Source: Gordonia sp. (in: high G+C Gram-positive bacteria) (GTDB lineage: Bacteria; Actinomycetota; Actinomycetes; Mycobacteriales; Mycobacteriaceae). From it: 24,000 nucleotides of DNA. Under the pieces are notes generated by a model, which was not told where the DNA came from, did no database searches, and saw only the letters and a list, made by a program, of their open reading frames with translations. Position 1 is the stretch's first letter, and every line of letters starts with the position of its first letter. The translations under genes and the position numbers were made by a program. Shown piece by piece: positions 7,027 to 22,961 of the stretch. The stretch spans positions 619,201-643,200 of the forward strand of contig NZ_JASGII010000001.1 of the NCBI RefSeq assembly GCF_047602025.1, read 5' to 3'.

Positions 7027-7848
7027 ATGACTCAGCCGCCCATCGATCCGGGCCAGCAACCGCCGCACGTTCCGGGCCAGCAGCCCGGCGCCTACCCGCC
7101 GCCCCCGCCCCCCGGGGGCTACGCCCCGGTTCCCGGCGCACACCCGTTCAGCGTCGGCGACGGCTTCAGCTGGGCCTTCAACAAGTTCGGCAAGAACTGG
7201 GTGCCGCTGGTCCTGGCGACCCTGGTGATGTTCATCATCATGGGCATCATCAACGGCGTCTTCAGCGGCATCGCGGGCGCCCTGGCCGACACCAGCAGCA
7301 GCGTGGTGGACACCGACGACGGCTTCAGCGCCGTCTTCTCGACCTCGGGCTTCACCGCGGGCAGCTGGATCATGACGATCCTCGGCATGATCGTGTCGCT
7401 GATCGTCGGCGGCTACGTCGCCGCGGCCTACTGGAACGGCATCCTGAAGATCGCCGACGGCCAGCAGGTCACCTTCGGCTCCTTCTTCCAGCCGCGCAAC
7501 GTCGGCCAGGTCATCATCGCCTCGGTGCTGTCCGGCCTGATCATGATGATCGGTTTCGCGGCGTGCTTCCTGCCCGGCCTGGTCGCCGCGATCTTCCTGT
7601 ACTTCACGACCATCGCGGTGGTGGACCACAACCTGAAGGGTCCGGACGGGCTGTCGGCCAGCTTCAACGTCGTCAAGGCCAACTTCGGCCCGGCGTTGCT
7701 GACCGCCCTGCTCGCCTGGGTGACCGTTGCCGTCGGCCTGCTGCTCTGCGGTGTCGGTGCGCTGGCCGGTGCCCCGATTGCGGCGCTGCTCGTGGCTTAC
7801 GCCTGGCGGCACCTCACCGGCGGCTACGTCGCGCCGCAGACGCAGTAG
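7027..7848 (+). CDS. Polytopic membrane protein with Pro-rich N-terminus, paralog 1 of 3
   Basis: SD GGGAG then ATG 7027. Starts MTQPP. Shares motifs with the next two genes: FSxGxxFSWAxxKF and YxxGxLxIAxGQxxTFGSFFxPRN. About 6 hydrophobic segments. Confidence 0.8.
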   Translation: MTQPPIDPGQQPPHVPGQQPGAYPPPPPPGGYAPVPGAHPFSVGDGFSWAFNKFGKNWVPLVLATLVMFIIMGIINGVFSGIAGALADTSSSVVDTDDGFSAVFSTSGFTAGSWIMTILGMIVSLIVGGYVAAAYWNGILKIADGQQVTFGSFFQPRNVGQVIIASVLSGLIMMIGFAACFLPGLVAAIFLYFTTIAVVDHNLKGPDGLSASFNVVKANFGPALLTALLAWVTVAVGLLLCGVGALAGAPIAALLVAYAWRHLTGGYVAPQTQ

Positions 7849-13135: not shown

Positions 13136-13693
13136 ATGACCGGATCGACCTTCGACGAGACCACGCGCGACGACTCCGTGGCCGACGCCGCCGCGCGCGC
13201 GGCCGCCGCCTCCAGTGATCGCGAGACCGTCGCTGCCCGCGCCCTGGTCGTGGTAGTCGCCGACGACCACCAGGACTCCGACGGGCTCGGCGCCCTGGTC
13301 GGCGAACTCCTCGAGGAGGCCGACTTCCACGTCGACGCGACGGTCGTCGTGTCCGGTGACGAGGTGGAGATCCGCAACGCGTTGAACACCGCGGTCATCG
13401 GCGGCGTCGACGTCGTCATCTCGGTCGGGGGAGTGGGCGTGCGCGCCCGCGACGTCGCCCCCGAGGCGACCGAACCGTTGCTCGACCGGCGGTTGCCGGG
13501 CATCGAGGAGGCGGTCCGCTCGTCAGGCCTGGCCGCCGGAGCCACCGACGCGGGCCTGTCCCGCGGCCTGGCCGGCATCTCCGGGCAGACGCTCGTGGTC
13601 AACCTCGCCGACTCCCGCTCGGCCGTGCGCGACGGCATGGCGACCATCACGATGCTCGCCCACCACGTCATCGACGACATCACTGAGTTCTGA
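13136..13693 (+). CDS. moaB: MoaB/Mog-family molybdenum cofactor biosynthesis protein (MoaB2-like)
   Basis: MoCF-biosynthesis fold motifs (VVISVGGVGVRARDVAPEA, PGIEEAVR, GLAGISGQTLVVNL). Matches the Rv0984 position after pepD. Confidence 0.8.
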   Translation: MTGSTFDETTRDDSVADAAARAAAASSDRETVAARALVVVVADDHQDSDGLGALVGELLEEADFHVDATVVVSGDEVEIRNALNTAVIGGVDVVISVGGVGVRARDVAPEATEPLLDRRLPGIEEAVRSSGLAAGATDAGLSRGLAGISGQTLVVNLADSRSAVRDGMATITMLAHHVIDDITEF

Positions 13694-13703
13694 GGGCGCA
13701 CCG

Positions 13704-13886
13704 GTGACCGAGGACCCGGCCAAGGCCGATCCCGCTGCCGACGATGCGTCGGCGGAACCGGACTGGAAGCGGCGGGCCCGGCTCGACGCGGTCTTCGGCG
13801 GTGACGAGCCGGACCCGGAGGCCCCGCGAACCGGGGGACACGGGGCCGACTGGTATCGGTCAAATCGGCCGCCGCACCATTCCTGA
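13704..13886 (+). CDS. Hypothetical small acidic protein (60 aa), possibly coupled to moaB2
   Basis: GAGGG (13692-13696) lies 7 nt before GTG 13704. GC3 is high over most of the frame. No recognisable domain. Confidence 0.4.
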   Translation: MTEDPAKADPAADDASAEPDWKRRARLDAVFGGDEPDPEAPRTGGHGADWYRSNRPPHHS

Positions 13887-13912
13887 CCAGGTATGCGGGT
13901 ATTCTTACGTGT

Positions 13913-13940
13913 TTGGATGAAGGTAAACCGTTGGTATAGC
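13913..13940 (+). promoter_or_regulatory. Candidate promoter for the porin pair (TTGGAT-16 nt-TATAGC)
   Basis: It lies in a locally AT-richer 90-nt intergenic stretch. TTGGAT is at 13913-13918 and TATAGC at 13935-13940, about 40 nt upstream of the porin start. Confidence 0.3.
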
Positions 13941-13978
13941 TTTGCCGACGGGCACCGACTGGTGCGAGAAGGGTGAAG

Positions 13979-14620
13979 ATGAGCGTGAAGCGTCGTCCGT
14001 CGCGATGGGCGGGTGTGACGGTGGCGTTGGCCACCGCGGCCGCGGTGACGGTGTCGGGACTGGGCGCGGGCGACGCGGATGCGTTGCGCCTGCCGGCCGG
14101 CAAGAAGAAGTCCACCGGGATCGACGGCCAGGTCGTCCTCCTCAAGCGCTCCGCCGAGTACGTCTTCCCGCAGCCGAGTGAGGCGCGCAACGGCGCCGGT
14201 CGCTCCACGCGTGTCTCGGGCACCTACACCGCGCGGATCAACCGCGGCGGCGGCAACGTCCAGGTCGGCTACCTCGTCGGCTGCCAGGTCAACATCGGCG
14301 GCCTCGACATGGGGTTGTCCGGCGGCTTCTACGGCCTGGCGGCTCCGGTGCCGCTGGTCAACGGCACAATCTCGTTCCCGCTGCAGCCCGGCCAGATCCA
14401 GGTGGTCCAGGCGCTGTCGAAGAACTTCTACCGCAAGGTCGTGAGCATCCAGCTCTCCGGCGTGGAGATCGCCGTGCAGAGCTGCGGCGGGTTCGCCCAG
14501 GCGCGCTCGTTCATCAAGGTGCTGGCCGCCGAGGACTACAGCACCGCCAGCGGCACGGTCAGCGGCAAGAGCACGGCCATCCAGACCACCCTCTACGGCA
14601 AGCCGTTCAGCCTCGGCTGA
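13979..14620 (+). CDS. MspA-family porin-like secreted protein 1
   Basis: AGAAGGG then ATG 13979. Signal peptide ends at ...GLGAGDADA. My by-eye alignment to recalled M. smegmatis MspA pairs VQVGYLVGCQVNIGG with LELGYQIGFPWSLG, LQPGQIQVV with GPGIQEV, and C-terminal TTLYGKPFSLG with TTYGEPWNMN. Length about 213 aa, close to the MspA precursor. Confidence 0.7.
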   Translation: MSVKRRPSRWAGVTVALATAAAVTVSGLGAGDADALRLPAGKKKSTGIDGQVVLLKRSAEYVFPQPSEARNGAGRSTRVSGTYTARINRGGGNVQVGYLVGCQVNIGGLDMGLSGGFYGLAAPVPLVNGTISFPLQPGQIQVVQALSKNFYRKVVSIQLSGVEIAVQSCGGFAQARSFIKVLAAEDYSTASGTVSGKSTAIQTTLYGKPFSLG

Positions 14621-14647
14621 CCCGCAGCAAAAGGAACCTTGGACCAG

Positions 14648-15307
14648 ATGAACTCCTTGCGAACCGGCGCTCCGCGCCGGGCGGTCGCCGGCGTCGCCCT
14701 CGTGCTCGCCGCCGCGACCGCGACGATGGCCGCGGCGCCCGGCGCGGACGCCCGCCGCCTGCCCGGCGGCTCGATCAACAAGAAGCTGGTCGACGGTTCC
14801 ACCGTCAAGGCCCGCCTCTACGACGAGGGCGTGCGCTACCACCGCGGCAACGTCGCCAACATCGGGACCAGCCGCGAGGTGTGGGTGTCGGGCAAGATCG
14901 TCGCCAACATCGGCGGCGGTGCCAAGGGTGCGCACATCTACGGCGGCTACGTCGTGGGTTGCCAGGTGAACCTCATCGGGGTTGACGGCAACGGCAACGC
15001 TGGTAACAACCCCTGGATCCCCAACGGCGGCATGATGGGCAACTCCGGCACGACGCTGCACATCGGCCCCGGCCAGGCCGGCTGGGTGCCGATCATCCAG
15101 GCCGTCCCGCAGGCCGGCGGCAACCCGCTCAACACCTTCACCTTCCGAGGCAACCGCGGTGGCCTCGCCTATAGCCAAGAGGGTTTCCGCGTGAACGGCT
15201 GTGCCGGGCACGCGTCGGCCCGAGCCCGATTCACCATCGAGGTCGAGACCGAGACGGTGCGCGCCCAAGTCGTCCTGTGGGGGAAGCCATTCACCCTCGG
15301 CGGCTGA
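14648..15307 (+). CDS. MspA-family porin-like secreted protein 2 (paralog of 13979..14620)
   Basis: Signal peptide ends at ...AAAPGADA. Carries GGYVVGCQVNLIG, HIGPGQAGWVPIIQ and C-terminal VVLWGKPFTLGG. Start is ATG 14648, or TTG 14639 as in the track. The SD AAGGAA is 11 nt upstream of the ATG, so the start is uncertain by 9 nt. Confidence 0.7.
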   Translation: MNSLRTGAPRRAVAGVALVLAAATATMAAAPGADARRLPGGSINKKLVDGSTVKARLYDEGVRYHRGNVANIGTSREVWVSGKIVANIGGGAKGAHIYGGYVVGCQVNLIGVDGNGNAGNNPWIPNGGMMGNSGTTLHIGPGQAGWVPIIQAVPQAGGNPLNTFTFRGNRGGLAYSQEGFRVNGCAGHASARARFTIEVETETVRAQVVLWGKPFTLGG

Positions 15308-15434
15308 TGGGCCGACACAACCACAACTAGGCAACACCCCGGCGCCGCAGCAGCGGTGACGCAGCCGGCGACGATCCCAGCGATCGTCGTGGGCCTATTC
15401 GGTGATGCCGAAGACGATGCTTTGAGGAGCACAC

Positions 15435-16127
15435 ATGACCACGACGCGACAGGCACTCCTGGCCGCACCATTGCTGGTGGCCGGCCTGAGCCTCGGCACC
15501 ACCACCGCATATGCCGATCCCGCGCCCGCGCCGGGCGCCACCCAGCCGGTCAACCCCGGCTCGAAGCTGTGGGACCAGATCAAGAACGGTCTCGGCGGCG
15601 GAAACAACCAGGGCCACGGCCACGACGATCACGATCACGACGGCGACGGCCACGATGACCACGACCACGATGATCACGACCACGACGGCGACGGCCACGA
15701 CGATCACGACGGCCACGACCACGAGGGCGGCACCGGCGGCACCGGTGGCATCCCCGGTGGCACCGGAGGGTCGACCGGCGGCGGGCACAGCTGCAATGAC
15801 GGCCACGGCCACTGCGACAACAACAGCACCGCCGGCGGCGGCATGGGCGGCGGTGGCGGCGGCGGCCACAACCACGGTCACGGTCACGACCACAGCGGTC
15901 ACAACCACGGCTCGACCGGGCCGGGCAGCGCCTACGGCGAGCGTGGCAACGCCCTCGACGACGAGTCGCCGGTGTGCAAGAAGGCGAAGAAGCGCGGCAA
16001 GCGGGTCGTGAAGTGCGCCCCGCCGCGCCGCGGCTCGACCCCGCCGCCCCCGCAGCGGTCGGCGCCCCAGCACGGTCACGACCACCACGACCACGACGGT
16101 CACGACCACCACGGGCACAGCCACTAG
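15435..16127 (+). CDS. Secreted His/Asp/Gly-rich low-complexity protein (putative metal-binding)
   Basis: GAGGAG lies 5 nt before ATG 15435. Signal peptide MTTTRQALLAAPLLVAGLSLGTTTAYA then DPAP. Three His blocks and four Cys (HSCNDGHGHC and VCKKAKKRGKRVVKC). CAC/CAT and GAC/GAT variation falls on third positions of this frame. Confidence 0.8.
   Translation: MTTTRQALLAAPLLVAGLSLGTTTAYADPAPAPGATQPVNPGSKLWDQIKNGLGGGNNQGHGHDDHDHDGDGHDDHDHDDHDHDGDGHDDHDGHDHEGGTGGTGGIPGGTGGSTGGGHSCNDGHGHCDNNSTAGGGMGGGGGGGHNHGHGHDHSGHNHGSTGPGSAYGERGNALDDESPVCKKAKKRGKRVVKCAPPRRGSTPPPPQRSAPQHGHDHHDHDGHDHHGHSH
15612..15725 (+). repeat. In-frame His/Asp run GHGHDDHDHDGDGHDDHDHDDHDHDGDGHDDHDGHDHE
   Basis: By my count, 13 His and 17 Asp in 38 residues. 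CACGACGGCGACGGCCACGA occurs twice. A second block, QHGHDHHDHDGHDHHGHSH, forms the C-terminus (16068-16124). Confidence 0.8.
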
Positions 16128-16256
16128 CGCAACGGAGCAAACTGGCAATCCCCTGTGCATCGCCGTCAGGGTGCCTGAAGTTCCTGGAAATGGGTCAACT
16201 GTCCAGCTAGCGTCGAAGGCGTAGGAAATGGTCGGGACAACGAAAGGGATGTCACC

Positions 16257-16403
16257 ATGCGTCACCACTACGGCCCTCGCCGCTACTACGGCCCGCGCCG
16301 CTACTACGGACCCCGCGGCCCGCGCGGCTACTACGGTCCTCGCCGCTACTACGGCCCGCGCCGGTACTACGGCCCGCGCCCGCGCTACTGGGGTTCGTAC
16401 TGA
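16257..16403 (+). CDS. 48-aa Tyr/Arg/Gly/Pro repeat peptide (YYGPRR)n; not in the supplied ORF track
   Basis: GAAAGGGA (16242-16249) lies 7 nt before ATG 16257. Translation is MRHHYGPRRYYGPRRYYGPRGPRGYYGPRRYYGPRRYYGPRPRYWGSY, ending at TGA 16401-16403. Differences between repeat units are third-position synonymous in this frame (CCT/CCG/CCC, GGC/GGA/GGT, CGC/CGG). Hairpins follow the stop. Confidence 0.7.
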   Translation: MRHHYGPRRYYGPRRYYGPRGPRGYYGPRRYYGPRRYYGPRPRYWGSY

Positions 16404-16408
16404 CCCAG

Positions 16409-16427
16409 CGCTTCCCTAGCGGAAGCG
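16409..16427 (+). other. Small hairpin immediately after the peptide stop codon
   Basis: CGCTTCC (16409-16415), loop CTAGC, GGAAGCG (16421-16427). It abuts the terminator stem. Confidence 0.35.
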
Positions 16428-16480
16428 GATTCGACCACCGGATGAAGACTCCCTGCTTCTCCGGTGGTCGAATCTTATTA
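16428..16480 (+). terminator. Rho-independent terminator or attenuator between the peptide gene and the ABC exporter
   Basis: Perfect 15-bp arms, GATTCGACCACCGGA (16428-16442) and TCCGGTGGTCGAATC (16460-16474), with a 17-nt loop, followed by TTATTA. Confidence 0.7.
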
Positions 16481-16536
16481 GGCTGACAAGAGATCGCGGC
16501 GCCGCCAGGCGGCCCGCACCCCGACCCGAGGATCAG

Positions 16537-18495
16537 ATGGCCCGCAACCGCATGAGGCTCTTCCCGTCCGCTCGGGGCGCTCACCGCGCCCCCGATCGCT
16601 TCGACGAGGATGGCGACTTCGACTGGGCCGAGCAGGCCATGATCGACGAGTCGATCGGCGATGACGCGGTTTCCTGGGACGTCGAGCGCTGGCAGCAGCA
16701 GGATGGCGAGCCGCTGCCCGACGCCATGCTGGTGCCGCCCGCGACCCCGTTGCACGTGTTGGCCGCGATTCGCCGGTTCCGCCCGTACATGAAGGGCCTC
16801 TACGGCCGCCTGGTCCTCGGTATCATCCTGCAACTGGTCGACCTGCTGGCCAACGTCGCCAGCATCGCGCTGTTCGCGACGATCGTCGACAAGGTGCTTG
16901 TGCCCGGCGGCAAGTTTGAGAACCTCGCCCAGCCGATGACCCTGTGGATCGCGGTGACCCTCATCGGCGCGCTCGCCTCCTATTTCGGCGAAGTCCTCAC
17001 CGGTGTCGTCGCCGAGCGCATGGTCATGCGCGTGCGCGACGACCTCTACGAGCACACCCAGCAGCTGGCTCCGCACGTGCGGCGCAAATACCCCTCCGGT
17101 GATCTGATCGCCCGGCACAGCGGCGACGTCGAGTCGACCGAGCACCTGGTGTCCTCGGCCGTCGTCGACGCGACGTTGGCCGTCATCTCGGTCATCGTCT
17201 ATGCGGCCGCGGCGCTGAAGGCCGACTGGAAGCTCGCCATGGTCGCCTTCGTGCTGGCGCCCATCCTGGCGATCATCTCGCGGTGGTTCGGCGTCGTACT
17301 CAAACGCGTGTCTCGCCGCGAGCGGATCGCCAACGGCAAGATCAGCGCCCTGGTCGCCGAGGGCGTCGACAACTCGCTGGCCATCCAGGCAGACAACCAG
17401 GGGCCCGCCGACCGGCGTCGAGTGCGAGCCCAGTCGCTCGAATGGATGCGGGCGCGCGTCACCGAGATCAAGGCAGGCGAGATCTACGGCCAGGCCGTGG
17501 CCATGGTCGAGTTGTTCGTCATGCTCGGCGTCCTCGTCCTCGGGGCCTGGCAGATCACGCACGGCCACACCACCCTCGGTGCGCTGATCGCCCTCACCGG
17601 CTATCTCGGCCAGCTGTACCCGCAGATCCAATCCCTGGGCAGCCTGGCGGTCTCCATCACCACCGCGACGGCCAGCGCCGAGCGTGTCGCCCAGGTCCTC
17701 GACGAGCCGATCGCCATCGCCGACGACGAGGTCGACACCGACCCCGAGTCCGAGCTGCCGGTGCCCGCCGCGCTGCCCGTGCACACCAAGGGTGGGGTGC
17801 CGGTGGCCTTCGAACACGTCGACTTCGCCTACCCAGACTCGGGCACCAAGGTCTTCGACGACTTCAACCTCGACTTGGGCGCGGGCGAGTTCGTCTCCCT
17901 CGTCGGACCGAGCGGCGCCGGCAAGACGACCGTCACGCACCTGCTGCTGCGGTTCTACGACCCGGACTCGGGCACCGTGCGGATCGACGGCACCGACCTG
18001 TCGACCGAATCGCTCACCGCGGTCCGCAACCACATCACCCTGCTGCCGCAGCGGATCGCGATCTACCGCGGCACGATCGCCGACAACATCCGGTTCTCCT
18101 GCCCCGGCGCCTCGCGCGAGGAGATCGTCGCCGCCGCCCGTGCCGCCGACGCACACGACTTCATCGTGGGCCTCCCCGACGGCTACGACACCGAGCTGCG
18201 CGACGCCGGTGCCAACCTGTCCGGCGGCCAGCGACAGCGGATCGCCCTGGCGCGCGCCTTCCTGCGCGACACCCCGGTGCTGATCCTGGACGAGCCGACG
18301 ACCGGCCTGGACGCGGCCACCACCGAGCGCGTCCTGGAGCCGATGATGCGGTTGGCGACCTCGCGCACGACCATCCTGATCACGCACGACGCGGAGCTGG
18401 CGGCCAAGGCGCCGCGCGTCGTCGAATTGACCCCCGTCGCAGACGCGTCGGACGACCGACCCGCCCGGCGGGCCGAGGGAGAGGGAGTCCAATGA
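16537..18495 (+). CDS. ABC exporter, fused permease + ATPase (type I exporter fold) with ~70-aa acidic N-terminal extension
   Basis: GAGGA lies 4 nt before ATG 16537. Six TM segments, then Walker A GPSGAGKTT, Q-loop LLPQ, signature LSGGQRQRIALARAF, Walker B VLILDEPT and H-loop ITHD. Confidence 0.9.
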   Translation: MARNRMRLFPSARGAHRAPDRFDEDGDFDWAEQAMIDESIGDDAVSWDVERWQQQDGEPLPDAMLVPPATPLHVLAAIRRFRPYMKGLYGRLVLGIILQLVDLLANVASIALFATIVDKVLVPGGKFENLAQPMTLWIAVTLIGALASYFGEVLTGVVAERMVMRVRDDLYEHTQQLAPHVRRKYPSGDLIARHSGDVESTEHLVSSAVVDATLAVISVIVYAAAALKADWKLAMVAFVLAPILAIISRWFGVVLKRVSRRERIANGKISALVAEGVDNSLAIQADNQGPADRRRVRAQSLEWMRARVTEIKAGEIYGQAVAMVELFVMLGVLVLGAWQITHGHTTLGALIALTGYLGQLYPQIQSLGSLAVSITTATASAERVAQVLDEPIAIADDEVDTDPESELPVPAALPVHTKGGVPVAFEHVDFAYPDSGTKVFDDFNLDLGAGEFVSLVGPSGAGKTTVTHLLLRFYDPDSGTVRIDGTDLSTESLTAVRNHITLLPQRIAIYRGTIADNIRFSCPGASREEIVAAARAADAHDFIVGLPDGYDTELRDAGANLSGGQRQRIALARAFLRDTPVLILDEPTTGLDAATTERVLEPMMRLATSRTTILITHDAELAAKAPRVVELTPVADASDDRPARRAEGEGVQ

Positions 18496-19193
18496 AGAAC
18501 TGGAAGCTGACGGCGGCGCTCTCCGCGCCGATCCTCGCCGCCGGTGTGCTGATGGGCGGCGGCGCCGTCTACGCCGCACCGGGTGACGGCGGCGGCAACG
18601 GTGGCGGCGGCGGCAATTCCGGCGGCCCGAGCGGCGGTGGTGGCAACCACGGCGGCCCCAGCGGCGGCGGTGGCGACCACGGCGGCCCGAGCGGCGGCGG
18701 TGGGCACCAGGGCGGTCCGGGCGGCGGCCTGGGCGGCGATGGTGGCCGAGGCGGCGACGGCGGTCGCGGCGGTGAGCACGGCGATCGCGGTGGTGACGGC
18801 GGCCGGGGCGGCCACGACCATGGGGATCGGGGCCCGCGCGGCGATCGCGGTGACCGGGGCGATCGCGGCGACCGTGGCGACCGCGGTGACCGGGGCAATC
18901 GCGGTGACCGTGGCCATCGGGGCGATCGCGGACATCGCGGCGACCGTGGCCACTGGGGCGATCGCGGCCCGCGCGGCCCGCGCCACGACCACCGCCACCC
19001 GCGGGGCAACGGCCCGTGGTACGACCCCAACCCGTACAACCGGCCGCACCGGCACAACCCGCGGCAGCGGCCACCGCACTACGGCCCGCAGTACTGGCCC
19101 GAGAACAACCGGCGCTACCGCGAGATGCGTCGGCAGTACCGCGGTCACTACCACTACTACGGCCCGTGGGCGGTCCCGCGCAGCTGGAGCTAG
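18492..19193 (+). CDS. Secreted Gly-rich / collagen-like (Gly-Asp-Arg)n protein with Tyr/Arg/Pro/His-rich C-terminal tail
   Basis: ATG 18492 overlaps the ABC stop (ATGA), and GAGGGAG lies 4 nt upstream. Signal peptide [28 protein letters not shown] then APGD. Next come GGPSGGGG(N/D/H)H repeats, 18 uninterrupted G-X-Y triplets, and the tail ...[26 protein letters not shown]. Confidence 0.8.
18822..18983 (+). repeat. 18 consecutive in-frame Gly-X-Y triplets ([54 protein letters not shown])
   Basis: 9-nt periodic DNA (GGN GAY CGN) with synonymous variation between units. A broader Gly-rich region starts near 18583. Confidence 0.85.
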
Positions 19194-19206
19194 TCGGCCA
19201 TGACTG

Positions 19207-19242
19207 ATTCGGCCCCCGTCCACGTGTGGACGGGGGCCGAAT
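19207..19242. terminator. Bidirectional stem-loop terminator between the collagen-like gene and convergent mscL
   Basis: ATTCGGCCCCCGTCCAC (19207-19223) and GTGGACGGGGGCCGAAT (19226-19242), followed by TCTGTCTG. It sits between stops at 19193 (+) and 19257 (-). Confidence 0.7.
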
Positions 19243-19256
19243 TCTGTCTGTGCCCG

Positions 19257-20048
19257 CTAGCGCGAGTGGCGGCCGGGGTGGTCCGGCGGCAGGTCCGGAT
19301 CGGGGTACCCGGGGTAGCCGCCGTCGGAATACCCCGTGTCGGAGTAGCCACCGTCGTCGTAGCCACCGGCCTGGTAGCCGCCGCCGGCCGGCGGCGGCAC
19401 GGGCGGCTGCGAGCCGGTGGGGTAGCCGCCGCGCGGCTGGTAGGCGCCGGGTGCGGGCGGGGGAGTGCCGACCGGGGGCTGCGAGCCGGTGGGGTAGCCG
19501 CCGCGCGGCTGGTAGGCGCCGGGTGCGGGCGGGGGTCCGCCGACCGGGGGCTGCGAGCCGGTGGGGTAGCCGCCGGCGGGGCGGATCATCGGCGCGGCAT
19601 CGGCCTTGGCCTTCGCGTCGGCCTTCGCGTCGGCGTCAGGATCCATCAGGTTGCGGATCTCGGTGAGCAGCGAGACCTCGGTGTCCTCGTCCTTGTCGCC
19701 ACCGGACACCAGGCCGGACAGCTTGTTGTACGGCAGCACGATGATGAAGTAGACGACGGCGGCCACGATCAGGAAGTTGATCGCCGCGGTGATCACCGCG
19801 GAGAGGTCGACGTAGTTCAGCGCGCTGGTGACGTTGGTGTTGTCCTTGGCGAGCCGGCATTCGCCGATGCAGAAGCCGAGGCCCTTGACGGCGTTGGGGT
19901 CGTTGCCGCCGAACGAGTTGATCAGCGGCTGGATGACCTTCTCGGTGAAGGCGGTGACGATCGCGGTGAACGCGGCGCCGATGATGACCGCCGTCGACAA
20001 TTCGACGACGTTCCCGCGAAGGATGAAGTCCTTGAAGCCTTTGAACAC
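19257..20048 (-). CDS. mscL: Large-conductance mechanosensitive channel MscL with long Pro/Gly/Tyr-rich C-terminal extension
   Basis: GAGAGGGG lies 6 nt before GTG 20048. The N-terminus (V)FKGFKDFILRGNVVELSTAVIIGAAFTAIV is the MscL signature. 263 aa versus about 130-150 aa typical. The track start at 20090 adds 14 non-conserved residues. Confidence 0.85.
   Translation of the reverse strand: MFKGFKDFILRGNVVELSTAVIIGAAFTAIVTAFTEKVIQPLINSFGGNDPNAVKGLGFCIGECRLAKDNTNVTSALNYVDLSAVITAAINFLIVAAVVYFIIVLPYNKLSGLVSGGDKDEDTEVSLLTEIRNLMDPDADAKADAKAKADAAPMIRPAGGYPTGSQPPVGGPPPAPGAYQPRGGYPTGSQPPVGTPPPAPGAYQPRGGYPTGSQPPVPPPAGGGYQAGGYDDGGYSDTGYSDGGYPGYPDPDLPPDHPGRHSR
19405..19574 (-). repeat. 72-bp tandem repeat (~2.4 copies) inside the mscL 3' region
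   Basis: Units begin at 19405, 19477 and 19549. Copies 1 and 2 differ at 3 of 72 positions. On the minus strand they encode GGYPTGSQPPVG(G/T)PPPAPGAYQPR. Confidence 0.85.
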
Positions 20049-20218
20049 TGTGAGCCCCTCTCTCGGTATGCACAGTCTGTTTTTCGCCAAGCGTCCCGAC
20101 CCGAAGACGCAGCACAGTTGGCTGAATCGTAAACCCGGACCCCCACCAGGTCTGTCGTCTGACTTCGAATGGTTGTTTCATCGTGTGCAATCCGAGACGT
20201 TGCCGAATCAACCTCCCA

Positions 20219-20893
20219 TCAGTGGATGACGACGGTCAGTGCCGTGGTCAGACCCGCTGCCGCCACCCGGTTGGCGGCCGTCGATCCCATTGCCAGCAAC
20301 ACCGGCGATCCGCTCTCCCGGCGCCCGGGCTTGGCGCCGCGGCCCAACGCCACGACCGCCCCCTCGGCGACGACGACCGGCGGATCGCCCGCCCCGCCCT
20401 TGGTGAGGACGTCGACGACGTCACCGGGCTCCAGGAGGTCGGCGGTTCCGGTGTCGGCGAGGTGGACCGGGACGAGCCGGGCGCGCGGATCCCCGACCAG
20501 GCGGCGCGGCAGTCGCGAGCCGAGCAAGCGCGAGTCGGTGAGGATCTCCCCGCGCCGGACGGCCGAGGTCACCGTGCGGCCGCGGGCGTCGGCCGACAGC
20601 GCGAGGGCGCCGTCGGGAACGATCTCGGGGCGCACGCGCAATACCGCGACGTCGTCGGCGGTCAGCGGCGCCCCCGGCCGCAGGTCGCGGGTCGCGACGA
20701 CCACCGCGTCGCCGGGCGCCGCGCGCCGATCGGCGAGGAACGCACCCAGGGCCGCGAGCACCAGCAGGGCCGCGATAGCGCGTCGGACGAGGATCGACCG
20801 GGTCCAGCCCGGGCGCACCGCCCGGCGCGCGCGATCGCGCCAGCGCGGTGCCAGCTCGTGCCCCCGGCGGGGGCGTGTGCGCCGATCAGCCAT
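20219..20893 (-). CDS. SAF-domain (RcpC/CpaB-like) membrane-anchored protein
   Basis: Arg-rich N-terminus, one TM (AIAALLVLAALGAFL), then a VVVATRDLRPGAPLTADDV...RRGEILTDSRL SAF-like module. No obvious SD, so the start is uncertain. Confidence 0.7.
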   Translation of the reverse strand: MADRRTRPRRGHELAPRWRDRARRAVRPGWTRSILVRRAIAALLVLAALGAFLADRRAAPGDAVVVATRDLRPGAPLTADDVAVLRVRPEIVPDGALALSADARGRTVTSAVRRGEILTDSRLLGSRLPRRLVGDPRARLVPVHLADTGTADLLEPGDVVDVLTKGGAGDPPVVVAEGAVVALGRGAKPGRRESGSPVLLAMGSTAANRVAAAGLTTALTVVIH

Positions 20894-21000
20894 GGGACGA
20901 ACGTAGGCCGTCCCACCGTCGTGGCCCCTGCGGATGGCCCGGCTCCGCCAGTGGCCTGTGGACGCCTCCGGTCTGTGGATTGCCGCCGCGGACGGGCCGC

Positions 21001-21029
21001 GCTGGCACTCGGAATGAATGAGTGCCAGC
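21001..21029 (+). promoter_or_regulatory. CIRCE-type inverted repeat (HrcA operator)
   Basis: GCTGGCACTC-GGAATGAAT-GAGTGCCAGC, with perfect 10-bp arms and a 9-nt spacer. It matches the GCACTC-N9-GAGTGC core of the CIRCE consensus TTAGCACTC-N9-GAGTGCTAA. It lies 48 nt upstream of the zinc-ribbon gene. Confidence 0.75.
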
Positions 21030-21035
21030 GTCGGT

Positions 21036-21041
21036 TAGAAT
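21036..21041 (+). promoter_or_regulatory. Candidate -10 hexamer TAGAAT just downstream of CIRCE
   Basis: TAGAAT lies 35 nt upstream of GTG 21077. With this layout CIRCE would occupy the -35/spacer region, the usual repressor arrangement. Confidence 0.35.
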
Positions 21042-21076
21042 CAGCGAGTAACACGACGATCCGTGGAGGTTCCCTC

Positions 21077-21409
21077 GTGCCCACCTACTCCTACGCCTGC
21101 ACGAAGTGCGACAACAAGTTCGACATCGTGCAGTCCTTCTCCGACGACGCGCTCACCGAGTGCCCGGAGTGCAAGGGCAAGCTGCGCAAGCTGTTCAACA
21201 GCGTCGGCATCGTCTTCAAGGGCAGCGGCTTCTACCGGACCGACTCGCGAGCGGGCTCGGTGAAGGCCGACTCGGGCGACTCCGGCTCCTCGTCGGGCGA
21301 GAAGTCGTCGTCGAGCGAGAAGTCCTCGTCGACGGAGAAGTCGTCGTCGAAGTCGAAGTCCGCCGACAAGTCCTCGTCGAAGTCGAGCGGCTCCACCAAG
21401 TCGGCCTAG
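21077..21409 (+). CDS. FmdB-family zinc-ribbon protein with Ser/Lys-rich disordered tail (Rv0991c/Ruc-like)
   Basis: GGAGG lies 7 nt before GTG 21077. The N-terminus VPTYSYACTKCDNKFDIVQSFSDDALTECPECKGKLRKLF has two CxxC pairs. The tail has SSSGEKSSSSEKSSSTEKSSSKSKS repeats. 110 aa. Confidence 0.85.
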   Translation: MPTYSYACTKCDNKFDIVQSFSDDALTECPECKGKLRKLFNSVGIVFKGSGFYRTDSRAGSVKADSGDSGSSSGEKSSSSEKSSSTEKSSSKSKSADKSSSKSSGSTKSA

Positions 21410-21984
21410 CCGCCGACGCGGGTGAACCCCCCGGTCGGCGTCAGCACCCAGTCCATCGGCACGTCGGTCGGTTCGGCCGGCAACTCGGCCAACACCTCGT
21501 CGTCGTAGACGATCGCAATCCGCACCGCGCCGGCATCGGCCAGGCTGCGGTCGTAGTAGCCGGCGCCGCGGCCCAGCCGCGTGCCGTCCGGCGCGACCGC
21601 CAGGGCCGGCAGGAAGACGACGTCCGCGTCGGCAATCGCCTCGGGCCCCAGGGCGCCGGTCGTCGGCTCGGCCAATCCCCAGCGACGGGTGGTCAGCGCC
21701 TCGCCCGGCCGGTACTCGGCCCAGTGCAGCGGTTGCGGATCGCCGTCGGGGACGACGGGAACGAGAACGCGGAAGCCCTGGTCGACCAGGGCGTCGAGCA
21801 TCGAGTCCGAGCCCGGTTCGGTGCCGACCGGGAGGTAGCAGGCGATGGTGGCGCCCGGTGCTGCGTCGACGGGCAGGCGGTACATCCACTCGGCGAGGTT
21901 CAGCGCGGCCGACTCCACGTCGAAAACCGCCCTGGCCTCGCGATTCGCGCGCAATCGGGCCCGCACGTCGTGCTTGGATGTCAT
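21406..21984 (-). CDS. 5-formyltetrahydrofolate cyclo-ligase
   Basis: Start at ATG 21984 (MTSKHDVRARLRANR) after GGGAGAG. C-terminal GTRLGRGAGYYDR matches the family motif G-x-RLG-x-G-x-GYYDR. Matches the Rv0992c position next to galU. Confidence 0.8.
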   Translation of the reverse strand: MTSKHDVRARLRANREARAVFDVESAALNLAEWMYRLPVDAAPGATIACYLPVGTEPGSDSMLDALVDQGFRVLVPVVPDGDPQPLHWAEYRPGEALTTRRWGLAEPTTGALGPEAIADADVVFLPALAVAPDGTRLGRGAGYYDRSLADAGAVRIAIVYDDEVLAELPAEPTDVPMDWVLTPTGGFTRVGG

Positions 21985-21991
21985 CGACTCT

Positions 21992-22029
21992 CCCGCGATT
22001 GTCGCGGGCGGCCCCGCGCCGCCTACAGT
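21992..22029. promoter_or_regulatory. Divergent control region: palindrome CCCGCGA-TTG-TCGCGGG plus TACAGT -10 placed for a leaderless galU mRNA
   Basis: Palindrome arms at 21992-21998 and 22002-22008. TACAGT at 22024-22029 ends 8 nt before the galU ATG (22038). No SD precedes galU. Confidence 0.3.
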
Positions 22030-22037
22030 GTAGAGCC

Positions 22038-22961
22038 ATGAGCGCATCCCGATCGGACGCCGCGACCGCCCCGCCCATCCCGCGGACGGCGGTGGTGCCC
22101 GCCGCCGGTCTCGGCACCCGCTTCCTGCCGGCGACCAAGACGGTGCCCAAGGAACTGTTGCCCGTCGTCGACACCCCCGGCATCGAGTTGGTGGCCGAGG
22201 AGGCCAAGTCGGCCGGCGCCCAACGACTGCTGATCATCACCTCGCCCGGCAAGGACGGCGTGGTCGCCCACTTCGTCGAGGACCTGGTCCTGGAGAACAC
22301 CCTTGCCAGCCGCGGAAAGGCGGCCATGCTGGCGAAGGTCCGCAATGCGCCGAACCTGCTCGAGGTGGCCTCCGTCGTCCAGGAGCAGCCGTTGGGCCTC
22401 GGTCACGCGGTCGGGTGCGTCGAGGAGTACCTCGCCGACGACGAGGATGCCGTCGCGGTGCTGCTGCCCGACGACCTGGTCCTGCCCGGCGGGGTCCTGG
22501 AGACCATGGCGCGCGTGCGCGAGCGCCGCGGCGGATCGGTGCTGTGCGCGATCGAGGTCCCCGACGACCAGCTGTCGGCCTACGGCATCTTCGACGTCGA
22601 GACGCTGCCCGACGCGGCCAACCCCGACGTGCTGCGCGTGCTCGGCATGGTGGAGAAGCCGGAGCCGGGACAGGCGCCGTCGAACTTCGCCGCCGCCGGC
22701 CGCTACATCCTCGACCGCAAGATCTTCGACGCGCTGCGCCGCATCAAGCCCGGCGCCGGCGGCGAGCTCCAGCTCACCGATGCCATCGCGCAGCTGATCG
22801 CCGACGGCGAGCCGGTCCACGTCGTCGTCCACCGGGGCACCCGGCACGACCTGGGCAACCCCGGCGGCTACCTCAAGGCGGCGGTCGATTTCGCCCTCGA
22901 CCGCGACGACTACGGGCCCGAACTGCGGGCCTGGCTGCTCGAGCGCCTGCACGAGGGCTGA
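22038..22961 (+). CDS. galU: UTP--glucose-1-phosphate uridylyltransferase GalU
   Basis: AAGLGTRFLPATKTVPKELLPVVD (the GxGTRxLPxTK motif), and VEKP. 307 aa. The track start at 21858 overlaps the divergent gene. Confidence 0.9.
   Translation: MSASRSDAATAPPIPRTAVVPAAGLGTRFLPATKTVPKELLPVVDTPGIELVAEEAKSAGAQRLLIITSPGKDGVVAHFVEDLVLENTLASRGKAAMLAKVRNAPNLLEVASVVQEQPLGLGHAVGCVEEYLADDEDAVAVLLPDDLVLPGGVLETMARVRERRGGSVLCAIEVPDDQLSAYGIFDVETLPDAANPDVLRVLGMVEKPEPGQAPSNFAAAGRYILDRKIFDALRRIKPGAGGELQLTDAIAQLIADGEPVHVVVHRGTRHDLGNPGGYLKAAVDFALDRDDYGPELRAWLLERLHEG

Follow-up and report, generated by a model that had tools for sequence, protein, structure and literature searches.

What is the block of six genes that separates moaB2 from mscL in a Gordonia sp. 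metagenome-assembled genome, and does it form one system? We analysed a window of 24,000 nucleotides (contig NZ_JASGII010000001.1, positions 619,201 to 643,200) in which the flanks follow the Rv0981-Rv0985c gene order of Mycobacterium tuberculosis, with mprA-mprB-pepD-moaB2 upstream and mscL downstream, while M. tuberculosis itself lacks the block, both as a first-pass annotation of this DNA had rightly stated. The six open reading frames (ORFs) that it had placed on the + strand are all present: two MspA-family porin genes, a gene for a His/Asp-rich protein, a gene for a small Tyr/Arg repeat peptide, an ATP-binding cassette (ABC) exporter gene and a gene for a Gly/Asp/Arg-rich (GDR) protein. 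All six look coding because the G+C content at third codon positions (GC3) is 0.84-0.94 in every one and because repeat units differ synonymously. The first-pass annotation had read them as one six-gene system inserted as a single piece, and this part of it did not survive comparison with related loci. Rather, the locus appears to be a composite of three layers of different age, because porins and ABC gene, peptide and GDR genes, and the His/Asp gene differ in their distribution. The new result, undescribed before, is a peptide-hairpin-ABC module consisting of a 30-56 aa polycationic ORF without a signal peptide, a strong hairpin and an ABC gene, which recurs in Gordonia, Williamsia and Pseudonocardia and possibly in Saccharopolyspora.

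Eight related loci were fetched for comparison, giving seven Gordonia loci including the window. The order MspA-MspA-ABC is found between moaB2 and mscL in six of these seven: the window, G. crocea (L081), G. terrae (L082), Gordonia sp. TBRC 11910 (L083), L086 and another Gordonia sp. (L088). The remaining one, G. pseudamarae (L084), has the ABC gene at another place. The loci of G. crocea and L088 run mprAB-pepD-moaB2, MspA, MspA, peptide, hairpin, ABC, coupled GDR-like gene, mscL. L086 reads MspA-MspA-ABC-mscL with neither peptide nor GDR gene and an ABC protein that is 80% identical; L083 has the same order plus a doubtful 41-aa Arg-rich ORF (GC3 0.68); and in G. terrae the MspA-MspA-ABC genes are followed by an esterase gene and two more ABC genes before mscL. 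The porin pair and the ABC gene thus appear to be an old, genus-level feature of the moaB2-mscL junction. The peptide and GDR genes occur together in three loci (window, L081, L088) and are jointly absent from four (L082, L083, L084, L086), despite the 2-kb ABC gene between them, a pattern that suggests they were gained or lost together. Finally, the His/Asp gene is found only in the window genome: in L081 and L088 the stop of the second MspA gene runs directly into the upstream region of the peptide gene, and in the window the His/Asp gene sits between these two (alignment A1), as a later, strain-specific addition would. Genes of the block are therefore co-localised in relatives, contrary to the condition under which the first-pass annotation would have been refuted, and it is their unity that fails, with the His/Asp gene missing from L081 and L088, porins and ABC standing alone in L086, the ABC gene elsewhere in G. 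pseudamarae, and tandem MspA genes known independently.

The peptide gene (16257-16403, +) encodes 48 aa of the form MRHH(YGPRRY)n...RYWGSY, beginning MRHHYGPRRYYGPRR... and carrying a net charge of +13, two His residues and a Gly or Pro every 2-4 residues, with a GC3 of 0.88 and no signal peptide. It is an 18-nt tandem repeat whose units differ only synonymously, as do those of the GDR gene; the codon choices that vary among the repeats of both genes are GGC/GGT/GGA, CCT/CCG/CCC, CGC/CGG/CGT and GAC/GAT. Such synonymous-only variation is the mark of selection for the protein rather than for the repetitive DNA. In L081 and L088 the same position is taken by orthologues of 53 and 56 aa, their frame kept though their lengths differ. 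These two peptides, MKNDAYGPRRYYGPRGYHGPRRPYGPGYYGPRR...RRYYGSL and ...HYGPPPRRYYGGPRGYYGPRRHYGPRRPYGFWGS, vary in length and repeat order and share with that of the window the YGPRR unit, a net charge of +11 to +13, an aromatic C-terminus and the lack of a signal peptide. In G. crocea the start of the gene (L081 ~7667-7706) bears a perfect 20-nt tandem duplication (TTGAAGTTCAACGTCGATCG twice), because of which its true start may be an upstream TTG aligned with the ATG of the window, giving ~60 aa. A homologue search with the 48-aa peptide returned only three weak matches (E = 4-6), for which composition correction is responsible; the string YYGPRR has no occurrence in the searchable literature; and the three low-complexity products of the window are without a Pfam or NCBIfam model.

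A metagenome pattern scan did recover the repeat unit elsewhere. More than 100 small proteins (L089-L208) combine a Sec signal peptide with (Y/F)YGPRR or YYGPPR repeats, for example at L089 5261-6041, L110 1199-1555, L188, L132 and L182. They are 95-140 aa long, lie on GC-rich soil or rhizosphere contigs, often as two adjacent paralogues, and have no Pfam or NCBIfam family; one subtype terminates in RRVWNGYRWVIRPVRVCR and another in GYYRPGIGVGVGPFGFRVF. In the five loci that we examined, the genes lie between a methyltransferase-like gene and glyQ/glyS. These proteins share with the Gordonia peptide a tandemly expanded YYGPRR or FYGPRR unit and differ from it in having a Sec signal, in being non-actinobacterial and in having no ABC gene in the five loci examined. 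Because so many of them carry Sec signal peptides, the YGPRR repeat appears to be a recurrent exported motif, of which the Gordonia version lacks a signal peptide but adjoins an exporter. L093, L097, L098 and ~30 more loci hold actinobacterial-looking proteins of ~300 aa with a MSPLRGEEFTGRTVEEAIERGL… start and a conserved GGYGPRRGYGPRPGGYRPRPERGP tail; these look RNA-binding (Jag/R3H-like by eye) and are seemingly unrelated to the Gordonia module, but they show that YGPRR strings can also serve as protein tails.

The DNA around the peptide gene is as distinctive as its product. Upstream lies a -10-like hexamer of the TANNNT type, TAGCGT (16208-16213, +), which reads TAGCGT in L088 and TAGGTT in G. 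crocea (alignment A1) and is a candidate -10 element of the peptide gene. After the stop codon come a small hairpin (16410-16426, +) and a long, terminator-like hairpin (16427-16475, +) followed by CUUAUU; the 88-nt stretch over both has a folding energy of -46.6 kcal/mol (z = -7.6). The small hairpin has counterparts at the matching place in L088 (GGCCUCC-UUCG-GGAGGCC) and L081, its sequence differing between species. The stem and 8-nt loop of the long hairpin (ACUCCCUG; window 16443-16458) are almost invariant in L088 and L081, and the flanking intergenic DNA is only ~50-70% identical among the three. As a plain terminator would need no conserved loop, the long hairpin may be a protein- or RNA-binding site. 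Downstream of it, a second -10-like hexamer, TAGGCT (16479-16484, +), is a candidate ABC promoter; CTAGGCTTG is kept in L088 and in the peptide-less L086, and G. crocea has CTACGCTTG, with one substitution. The retention of TAGGCT after the hairpin in a locus without the peptide gene suggests that the ABC gene has its own promoter. An Rfam scan of 13600-19400 found nothing credible.

The ABC gene itself (16537-18495, +) encodes an ABCB-type half-transporter of 652 aa, with a transmembrane domain (PF00664), a nucleotide-binding domain (PF00005) and an acidic, low-complexity N-terminal extension of ~90 aa. Its Walker A, signature and Walker B motifs read GPSGAGKTT, LSGGQRQR and VLILDEPT, and its best NCBIfam and PDB matches are of the MsbA, Sav1866 and ABCB1 types, which places it in the ABCB or type IV fold. 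Pfam finds no C39 peptidase domain in it and TIGR01193 scores 206 bits against a cut-off of 524, so the protein is an ABCB half-transporter and not a peptidase-containing bacteriocin transporter of the PCAT or TIGR01193 type. Its orthologues are 49-84% identical within Gordonia and 38-43% identical in Williamsia, Pseudonocardia and Saccharopolyspora; among the matches listed there is none from Mycobacterium. The window protein is 100% identical to an NCBI entry from a Gordonia sp. metagenome-assembled genome. A scan of genome contigs with the ABC protein was swamped by generic ABC motifs, all 80 loci being 27-36% identical paralogues from unrelated phyla, and exact-sequence look-ups of the window ABC protein, P0005 and P0006 gave no record. 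In G. pseudamarae (L084 9729-12996), the relocated orthologue lies beside CotH, DUF4956 and VTC-domain genes (polyphosphate-related) and a two-component system, with an MspA-family gene ~6.5 kb downstream.

The layout of the module is also found in Williamsia maris (L209), Pseudonocardia (L210) and Saccharopolyspora (L085), where a small ORF of high GC3 (net charge +5 to +13) that has a ribosome-binding site (RBS) precedes a hairpin of 12-19 bp, after which comes an ABC orthologue. The Williamsia ORF has 35-44 aa (...TKRRQRTWDPRRRQWLWIWR) and precedes a 12-bp hairpin; that of Pseudonocardia has 42 aa, is Lys-rich (RBS GAAGGAG, GC3 0.98) and precedes a 17-bp hairpin; and the possible case in Saccharopolyspora is a 30-aa Pro/Arg-rich ORF before a 19-bp hairpin. 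These peptides are not alignable between genera, and all are strongly cationic with aromatic residues. Because unalignable peptides are all strongly basic, what selection preserves may be the physical character of the product. Both Williamsia (L209 8656-9888, -) and Pseudonocardia (L210 7618-8580, +) have a gene for a Ser/Thr protein kinase immediately beside the ABC orthologue, and Williamsia has genes for a PspC-domain sensor kinase and a LuxR-type regulator just upstream of its small ORF. In G. terrae the ABC gene is not preceded by a small ORF. A basic peptide of 42 aa, MAHKITPNRQ…RPRTFPWFFGS (L082 16601-16729, -; RBS GAAGGA, GC3 0.83), is encoded there next to mscL and has an aromatic-Gly-Ser ending as in the G. 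crocea peptide.

The second partner in the younger layer is the GDR gene (18492-19193, +), whose product of 233 aa is predicted to be secreted and has a Tyr-rich tail, a net charge of +11 and 17 His residues. Its ATG overlaps the ABC stop codon (ATGA), the same 4-nt overlap is present in L081 and L088, and translational coupling to the ABC gene is thus conserved in three species. Also conserved in the three are the signal peptide (M-K-x-x-K...APILAAGVL...A-x-A) and the tail (Y-Y/F-Y-G-P-W/F-x-x-P-R/K-x-W-S). The middle region varies, from (Gly-Asp-Arg)n in the window, with 18 uninterrupted Gly-X-Y triplets showing synonymous variation only, to Gly-Pro-Arg/Gly-Asp-Arg plus (YPG)n in L088 and GGDRQQ hexads in G. 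crocea, the net charge ranging from +7 to +11. The first-pass annotation had called this protein collagen-like, a description that fits the window and L088, whose orthologue passes Pfam Collagen (PF01391; 29.5 vs 27.2 bits), but not G. crocea, whose orthologue has no Gly-X-Y periodicity; the window protein itself has no Pfam Collagen match at E <= 0.01. Because the middle varies while signal peptide and tail are conserved, the collagen-like character appears to be a local state and not a defining property of the protein. It resembles bacterial collagen-like proteins of the Scl1/Scl2 type in having a signal peptide followed, in the window, by 18 highly charged Gly-X-Y triplets, and it departs from them in lacking a trimerisation domain or cell-wall anchor and in that its conserved parts are the signal peptide and the Tyr-rich tail.

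Both products end in aromatic motifs, RYWGSY, YGFWGS or YYGSL in the peptides and, for example, YFGPFRIPKNWS in the GDR proteins, and this echo of the peptide's YYGP/W-G-S ending in the GDR tail is the only sequence-level link between them. Searches with the GDR protein added little. A phmmer run with the full protein against 1.84 billion representatives gave 11,742 matches, thousands of them collagen-like, and in the best 150 of these 11,742 the best stretch always lay in residues 30-185, the Gly-rich/Gly-X-Y region (one row had no stretch); since all align there, the matches are uninformative on orthology. A search with a chimeric alignment of signal peptide and C-terminus gave no match and missed even the known orthologues.

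The older layer begins with the two porin genes. The first (13973-14620, +; GC3 0.94) encodes 215 aa with a signal-peptide-like N-terminus and the second (14639-15307, +) encodes 222 aa; they score 76.9 and 98.7 bits with PF09203 (MspA), whose curated cut-off is 22.9 bits, bearing out their earlier description as MspA-like porins. The genes are separated by 18 nt and the proteins are 29% identical to each other. Both N-termini, read by eye, show a basic n-region, a hydrophobic core and an A-x-A-type site, so that their membership in the MspA family is based on the hidden Markov model score, a Sec signal read by eye and the mycolic-acid-containing host; phmmer of the porins against the PDB gave no match. 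Tandem MspA-like genes are known as paired porin subunits, NfpA/NfpB in Nocardia and PorA/PorB in Rhodococcus (PMC9233653, and Klackta et al. 2011 cited there). Like the paired cell-wall channel genes of Nocardia farcinica and Rhodococcus ruber, the Gordonia genes are two adjacent, divergent same-strand PF09203 genes with signal peptides in a mycolic-acid bacterium; unlike the pairs in the papers on those systems, they are consistently trailed by an ABC half-transporter gene. By this analogy the products are probably subunits of a mycomembrane porin, hetero-oligomeric like NfpA/NfpB. The porin pair is an ordinary part of the locus and would be a separate channel.

The youngest layer, the His/Asp gene (15435-16127, +; GC3 0.88), encodes a predicted secreted protein of 230 aa with a signal-peptide-like N-terminus, 33 His, 28 Asp and 4 Cys as two Cys pairs. 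The protein has a net charge of -17 and matches neither Pfam nor NCBIfam families. It is plausibly a periplasmic metal-binding protein or a polyanionic counter-ion partner of the cationic products. It cannot be a core component because it is missing from close relatives.

How might these layers work together? Of the three, we regard the peptide-exporter module as the real functional unit. We tentatively favour, at somewhat less than an even chance, a reading in which the exporter transports the peptide, which then works in the envelope together with the GDR protein, itself secreted and encoded by the coupled gene. The peptide would be made in excess from a short, hairpin-stabilised transcript with its own -10-like element and strong terminator, and a homodimeric ABC exporter, the cytoplasmic N-terminal extension of which is acidic, would capture it and pump it across the plasma membrane. 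In the clade of the window the peptide would have become a (YGPRR)n repeat, and the exporter gene would have acquired the coupled, Sec-secreted, disordered Gly/Asp/Arg-rich protein with a YYGP/aromatic tail as in the peptide. Once both are in the periplasm or cell wall, the two products might associate by Arg-Tyr and Arg-Asp contacts into an envelope-associated material. Gene content, coding status, synteny, co-occurrence, coupling, hairpins and composition are what the sequences show; that the ABC protein exports the peptide, that the products interact, and that they have a role in the envelope, be it adhesive, matrix-forming, antimicrobial or metal-related, are all things that we infer.

Several observations weigh against this reading. 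The ABC protein has neither a peptidase nor a recognisable substrate-binding domain, and its nearest characterised relatives are lipid and drug exporters. The first-pass annotation had called the exporter dedicated, which is plausible, the more so as a cationic small ORF recurs upstream of its orthologues in other genera; because the orthologues in L086, L082 and L084 have no upstream peptide, it cannot be dedicated solely to the peptide. Acidic N-terminal extensions on the ABC proteins count in favour of the reading, yet they do not follow the peptide: L086 has one and Williamsia lacks it. With its own net charge of +11, the GDR protein does not complement the peptide by simple charge. The comparison covers nine loci; chance alone can produce small Arg/Pro-rich ORFs where intergenic DNA is GC-rich, and those of L083 and L085 are uncertain. 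Expression, secretion and transport of the products are predictions from the sequence.

In the most direct rival explanation, which we regard as unlikely, the small ORF would be a regulatory leader peptide whose translation decides termination at the hairpin and so tunes ABC and GDR expression, the peptide itself having no function. Polybasic and Pro-rich nascent chains slow ribosomes, a small ORF, a terminator-like hairpin and an ABCB exporter recur on one strand in four genera, and some ABC orthologues lack the ORF, as a dispensable regulator predicts. There is also a close precedent in Bacillus subtilis, where the 53-aa leader BmrB precedes an ABCB exporter, bmrCD, and controls it through ribosome-mediated attenuation (PMC4191407). 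The Gordonia arrangement matches it in that an ORF of ~50 aa, an intrinsic terminator and the gene for an ABCB-type exporter all point the same way, and differs in the position and nature of the hairpin: in bmrB both terminator and antiterminator lie inside the 53-codon leader ORF (PMC4191407), whereas here 21-50 nt separate the stop codon from the hairpin in five of six loci, and 3 nt do so in L085, where the ORF is uncertain. The 3' end of the ORF and the left arm of the terminator fold no more stably than shuffled controls in five of six loci, leaving the left arm mostly unpaired, although this test for an antiterminator is thermodynamic only and a weak alternative pairing could escape it. 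The -10-like element after the terminator is retained where the ORF is absent. From genus to genus the peptides stay extremely cationic and aromatic, the expanded repeats vary only synonymously, and the co-occurrence of the peptide with a second gene carrying the YYGP tail is left unexplained by a mere leader. Because the hairpin lies beyond the ORF, no antiterminator is found and a promoter-like element follows the hairpin, we favour a structural peptide gene with a strong terminator, followed by the gene of its exporter, a layout common in bacteriocin and lantibiotic operons. As a special case of the export reading, the peptide might be a leaderless cationic antimicrobial, with the ABC protein exporting it and protecting its producer, the MspA channels as exit and the GDR protein as an immunity or chaperone factor, which we consider quite doubtful. 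Its small size, cationic and aromatic-rich composition, place beside an ABC exporter and fast divergence relative to a conserved transporter all fit, and the tails RRRQWLWIWR (Williamsia) and RPRTFPWFFGS (G. terrae) resemble Arg/Trp-rich antimicrobial peptides. Leaderless bacteriocins with ABC export and immunity, such as aureocin A53, lacticin Q and enterocin DD14, are well documented, Actinomycetota included (PMC6131525, PMC11580447). They too are small, cationic and aromatic-rich, made without a leader, quickly diverging and encoded beside an ABC exporter. Unlike the Gly/Pro-rich Gordonia repeat, the known ones are helical and saposin-like, a fold that the frequent Gly and Pro would exclude here; the diderm mycolate host has no recognisable immunity gene at the locus; the locus is chromosomal, in a conserved housekeeping neighbourhood and not an accessory island; and any antimicrobial activity would be a prediction from the sequence.

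It is also possible, if improbable, that the genes are mere neighbours, with the ABC protein a lipid or drug exporter, the peptide cytoplasmic (binding nucleic acid or polyphosphate) or spurious, and the GDR and His/Asp proteins independent, fast-evolving envelope proteins. Such independence is consistent with the MsbA and multidrug types among the best family matches, with ABC orthologues that stand without peptide, GDR or porins (L084, L085), with the strain-specific His/Asp gene and with the lack of a family assignment for every low-complexity product. It accounts poorly for a translational coupling of ABC and GDR genes kept in three species, for the joint presence or absence of peptide and GDR in seven of seven Gordonia loci and for the recurrence of a cationic small ORF and hairpin upstream of ABC orthologues in other genera; its high GC3 and repeat units that vary only synonymously speak for translation of this small ORF. 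Metal capture, one of the roles proposed in the first-pass annotation, would make the block a metal-handling module in which the His/Asp and His-containing GDR proteins buffer or capture Zn, Ni or Cu in the periplasm, the porins admit metal and the ABC protein exports a metallophore or excess metal. With a signal peptide, 33 His, 28 Asp and two Cys pairs, the His/Asp protein suits this idea, as do the 17 His of the GDR protein, and the HDHDHD runs resemble metal-binding loops of ZnuA-type proteins. The strain-specific His/Asp protein is all that supports the role, and the closest relatives, which otherwise keep the block, lack its gene; genes for a metal regulator, a metallochaperone, a P-type ATPase or metallophore synthesis are missing from the window, and the Tyr/Arg peptide has no metal ligands except 2 His, so that we regard a metal module as highly improbable. 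A bolder extension of the export reading, to which we give a slim chance, is that Gordonia and its relatives have an undescribed route by which small cationic signal-less peptides reach the mycolate envelope through the ABCB pump, with the GDR protein as escort or receiver and the MspA channel leading to the surface, where the Tyr/Arg repeat peptide would form a mussel-foot-like, cation-pi adhesive or coacervating coat that serves adhesion, aggregation and foaming. Gordonia is known for all three. A tripartite efflux-like complex of ABC protein, periplasmic rod and MspA channel was kept only as part of this low-probability case, as the Gly-X-Y rod is not kept in G. crocea and porins also occur without a GDR protein.

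The comparison with mussel foot proteins is one of composition. Mussel foot protein 3 (MFP3, UniProt Q9GUX8), whose sequence reads ADYYGPKYGPPRRYGGGNYNRY... (PMC9287526), is like the Gordonia peptides in its 46-56 aa, in the dominance of Tyr, Arg, Gly and Pro and in the strings YYGP and YGPPRRY(Y)GG, the latter in the G. crocea orthologue. Unlike them, it has a signal peptide and needs modification to dihydroxyphenylalanine (DOPA) and hydroxy-Arg. Homology was rejected, the BLASTP E values of 0.014 and 0.30 coming from single pairwise comparisons, and MFP3 is kept as a compositional resemblance. No tyrosinase or oxidase domain was found by Pfam among the window genes scanned, which did not include three ORFs downstream of mscL (20219-22961). 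The likeness is at most convergent composition and offers a lead on material properties, not a classification.

Around the block, the upstream gene order is purH, an Mg-chelatase-like/VWA pair, mprA, mprB, pepD and moaB2 (13136-13693). The limits first given to the block need one correction, since a conserved 60-aa ORF (13704-13886, +; WP_415030603.1; …RRRARLDAVFG…DWYRSNRPPHHS) lies directly 3' of moaB2, just outside the block. Orthologues of it are present in L088 and L086, and an ORF of 71 aa in G. terrae is similar. It has no family assignment and is the only window ORF annotated with identical boundaries in an exact cluster look-up. The gap that follows it (13887-13972, +), a candidate promoter region of the porin pair, had been described as AT-richer and promoter-like; its GC content is indeed lower (~0.65 vs 0.70-0.73 nearby), but a scan for sigma-70 consensus promoters gave no match, the gap included, a no-hit result expected for an actinobacterium. 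The terminator rule of that scan overlooked the real hairpins of the block. The bidirectional terminator proposed at the other end holds up: it spans 19206-19243 on both strands, with a 17-bp stem and a folding energy of -50 kcal/mol (z = -9.2 on the + strand and -10.2 on the - strand), and is common to the block and the convergent mscL (19257-20090, -). As first noted, no enzyme, regulator, integrase or transposase was found inside the block. At its C-terminus the MscL protein is extended by ~130 aa, the basis of which is a 72-nt repeat in 2.5 copies (95% identical; 19400-19579) that encodes the Pro/Gly/Tyr-rich GGYPTGSQPPVGGPPPAPGAYQPR; its orthologues in related loci are also long (270-317 aa).

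A small peptide beside an ABC exporter is a known kind of system, and it is the host and the products that are unusual here. To our knowledge, the routes by which signal-less proteins and peptides reach the mycomembrane and surface of mycolic-acid bacteria are largely unexplained, corynebacterial PorA/PorH being the classic case, and a peptide-hairpin-ABC module beside outer-membrane channel genes offers one concrete candidate that is open to genetic study. Work on phase separation and wet adhesion makes use of Tyr/Arg repeats, and the peptide is one that nature encodes in a gene. Should it be secreted, it could matter for cell-surface behaviour of Gordonia such as aggregation and sludge foaming, and biomaterials research might find it of interest. 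If the small ORF is instead a leader peptide, the module would be a new attenuator class for actinobacterial ABC exporters. Either way, the ~100 unannotated secreted (Y/F)YGPRR proteins in soil metagenomes mark this repeat as a recurring, uncharacterised building block.

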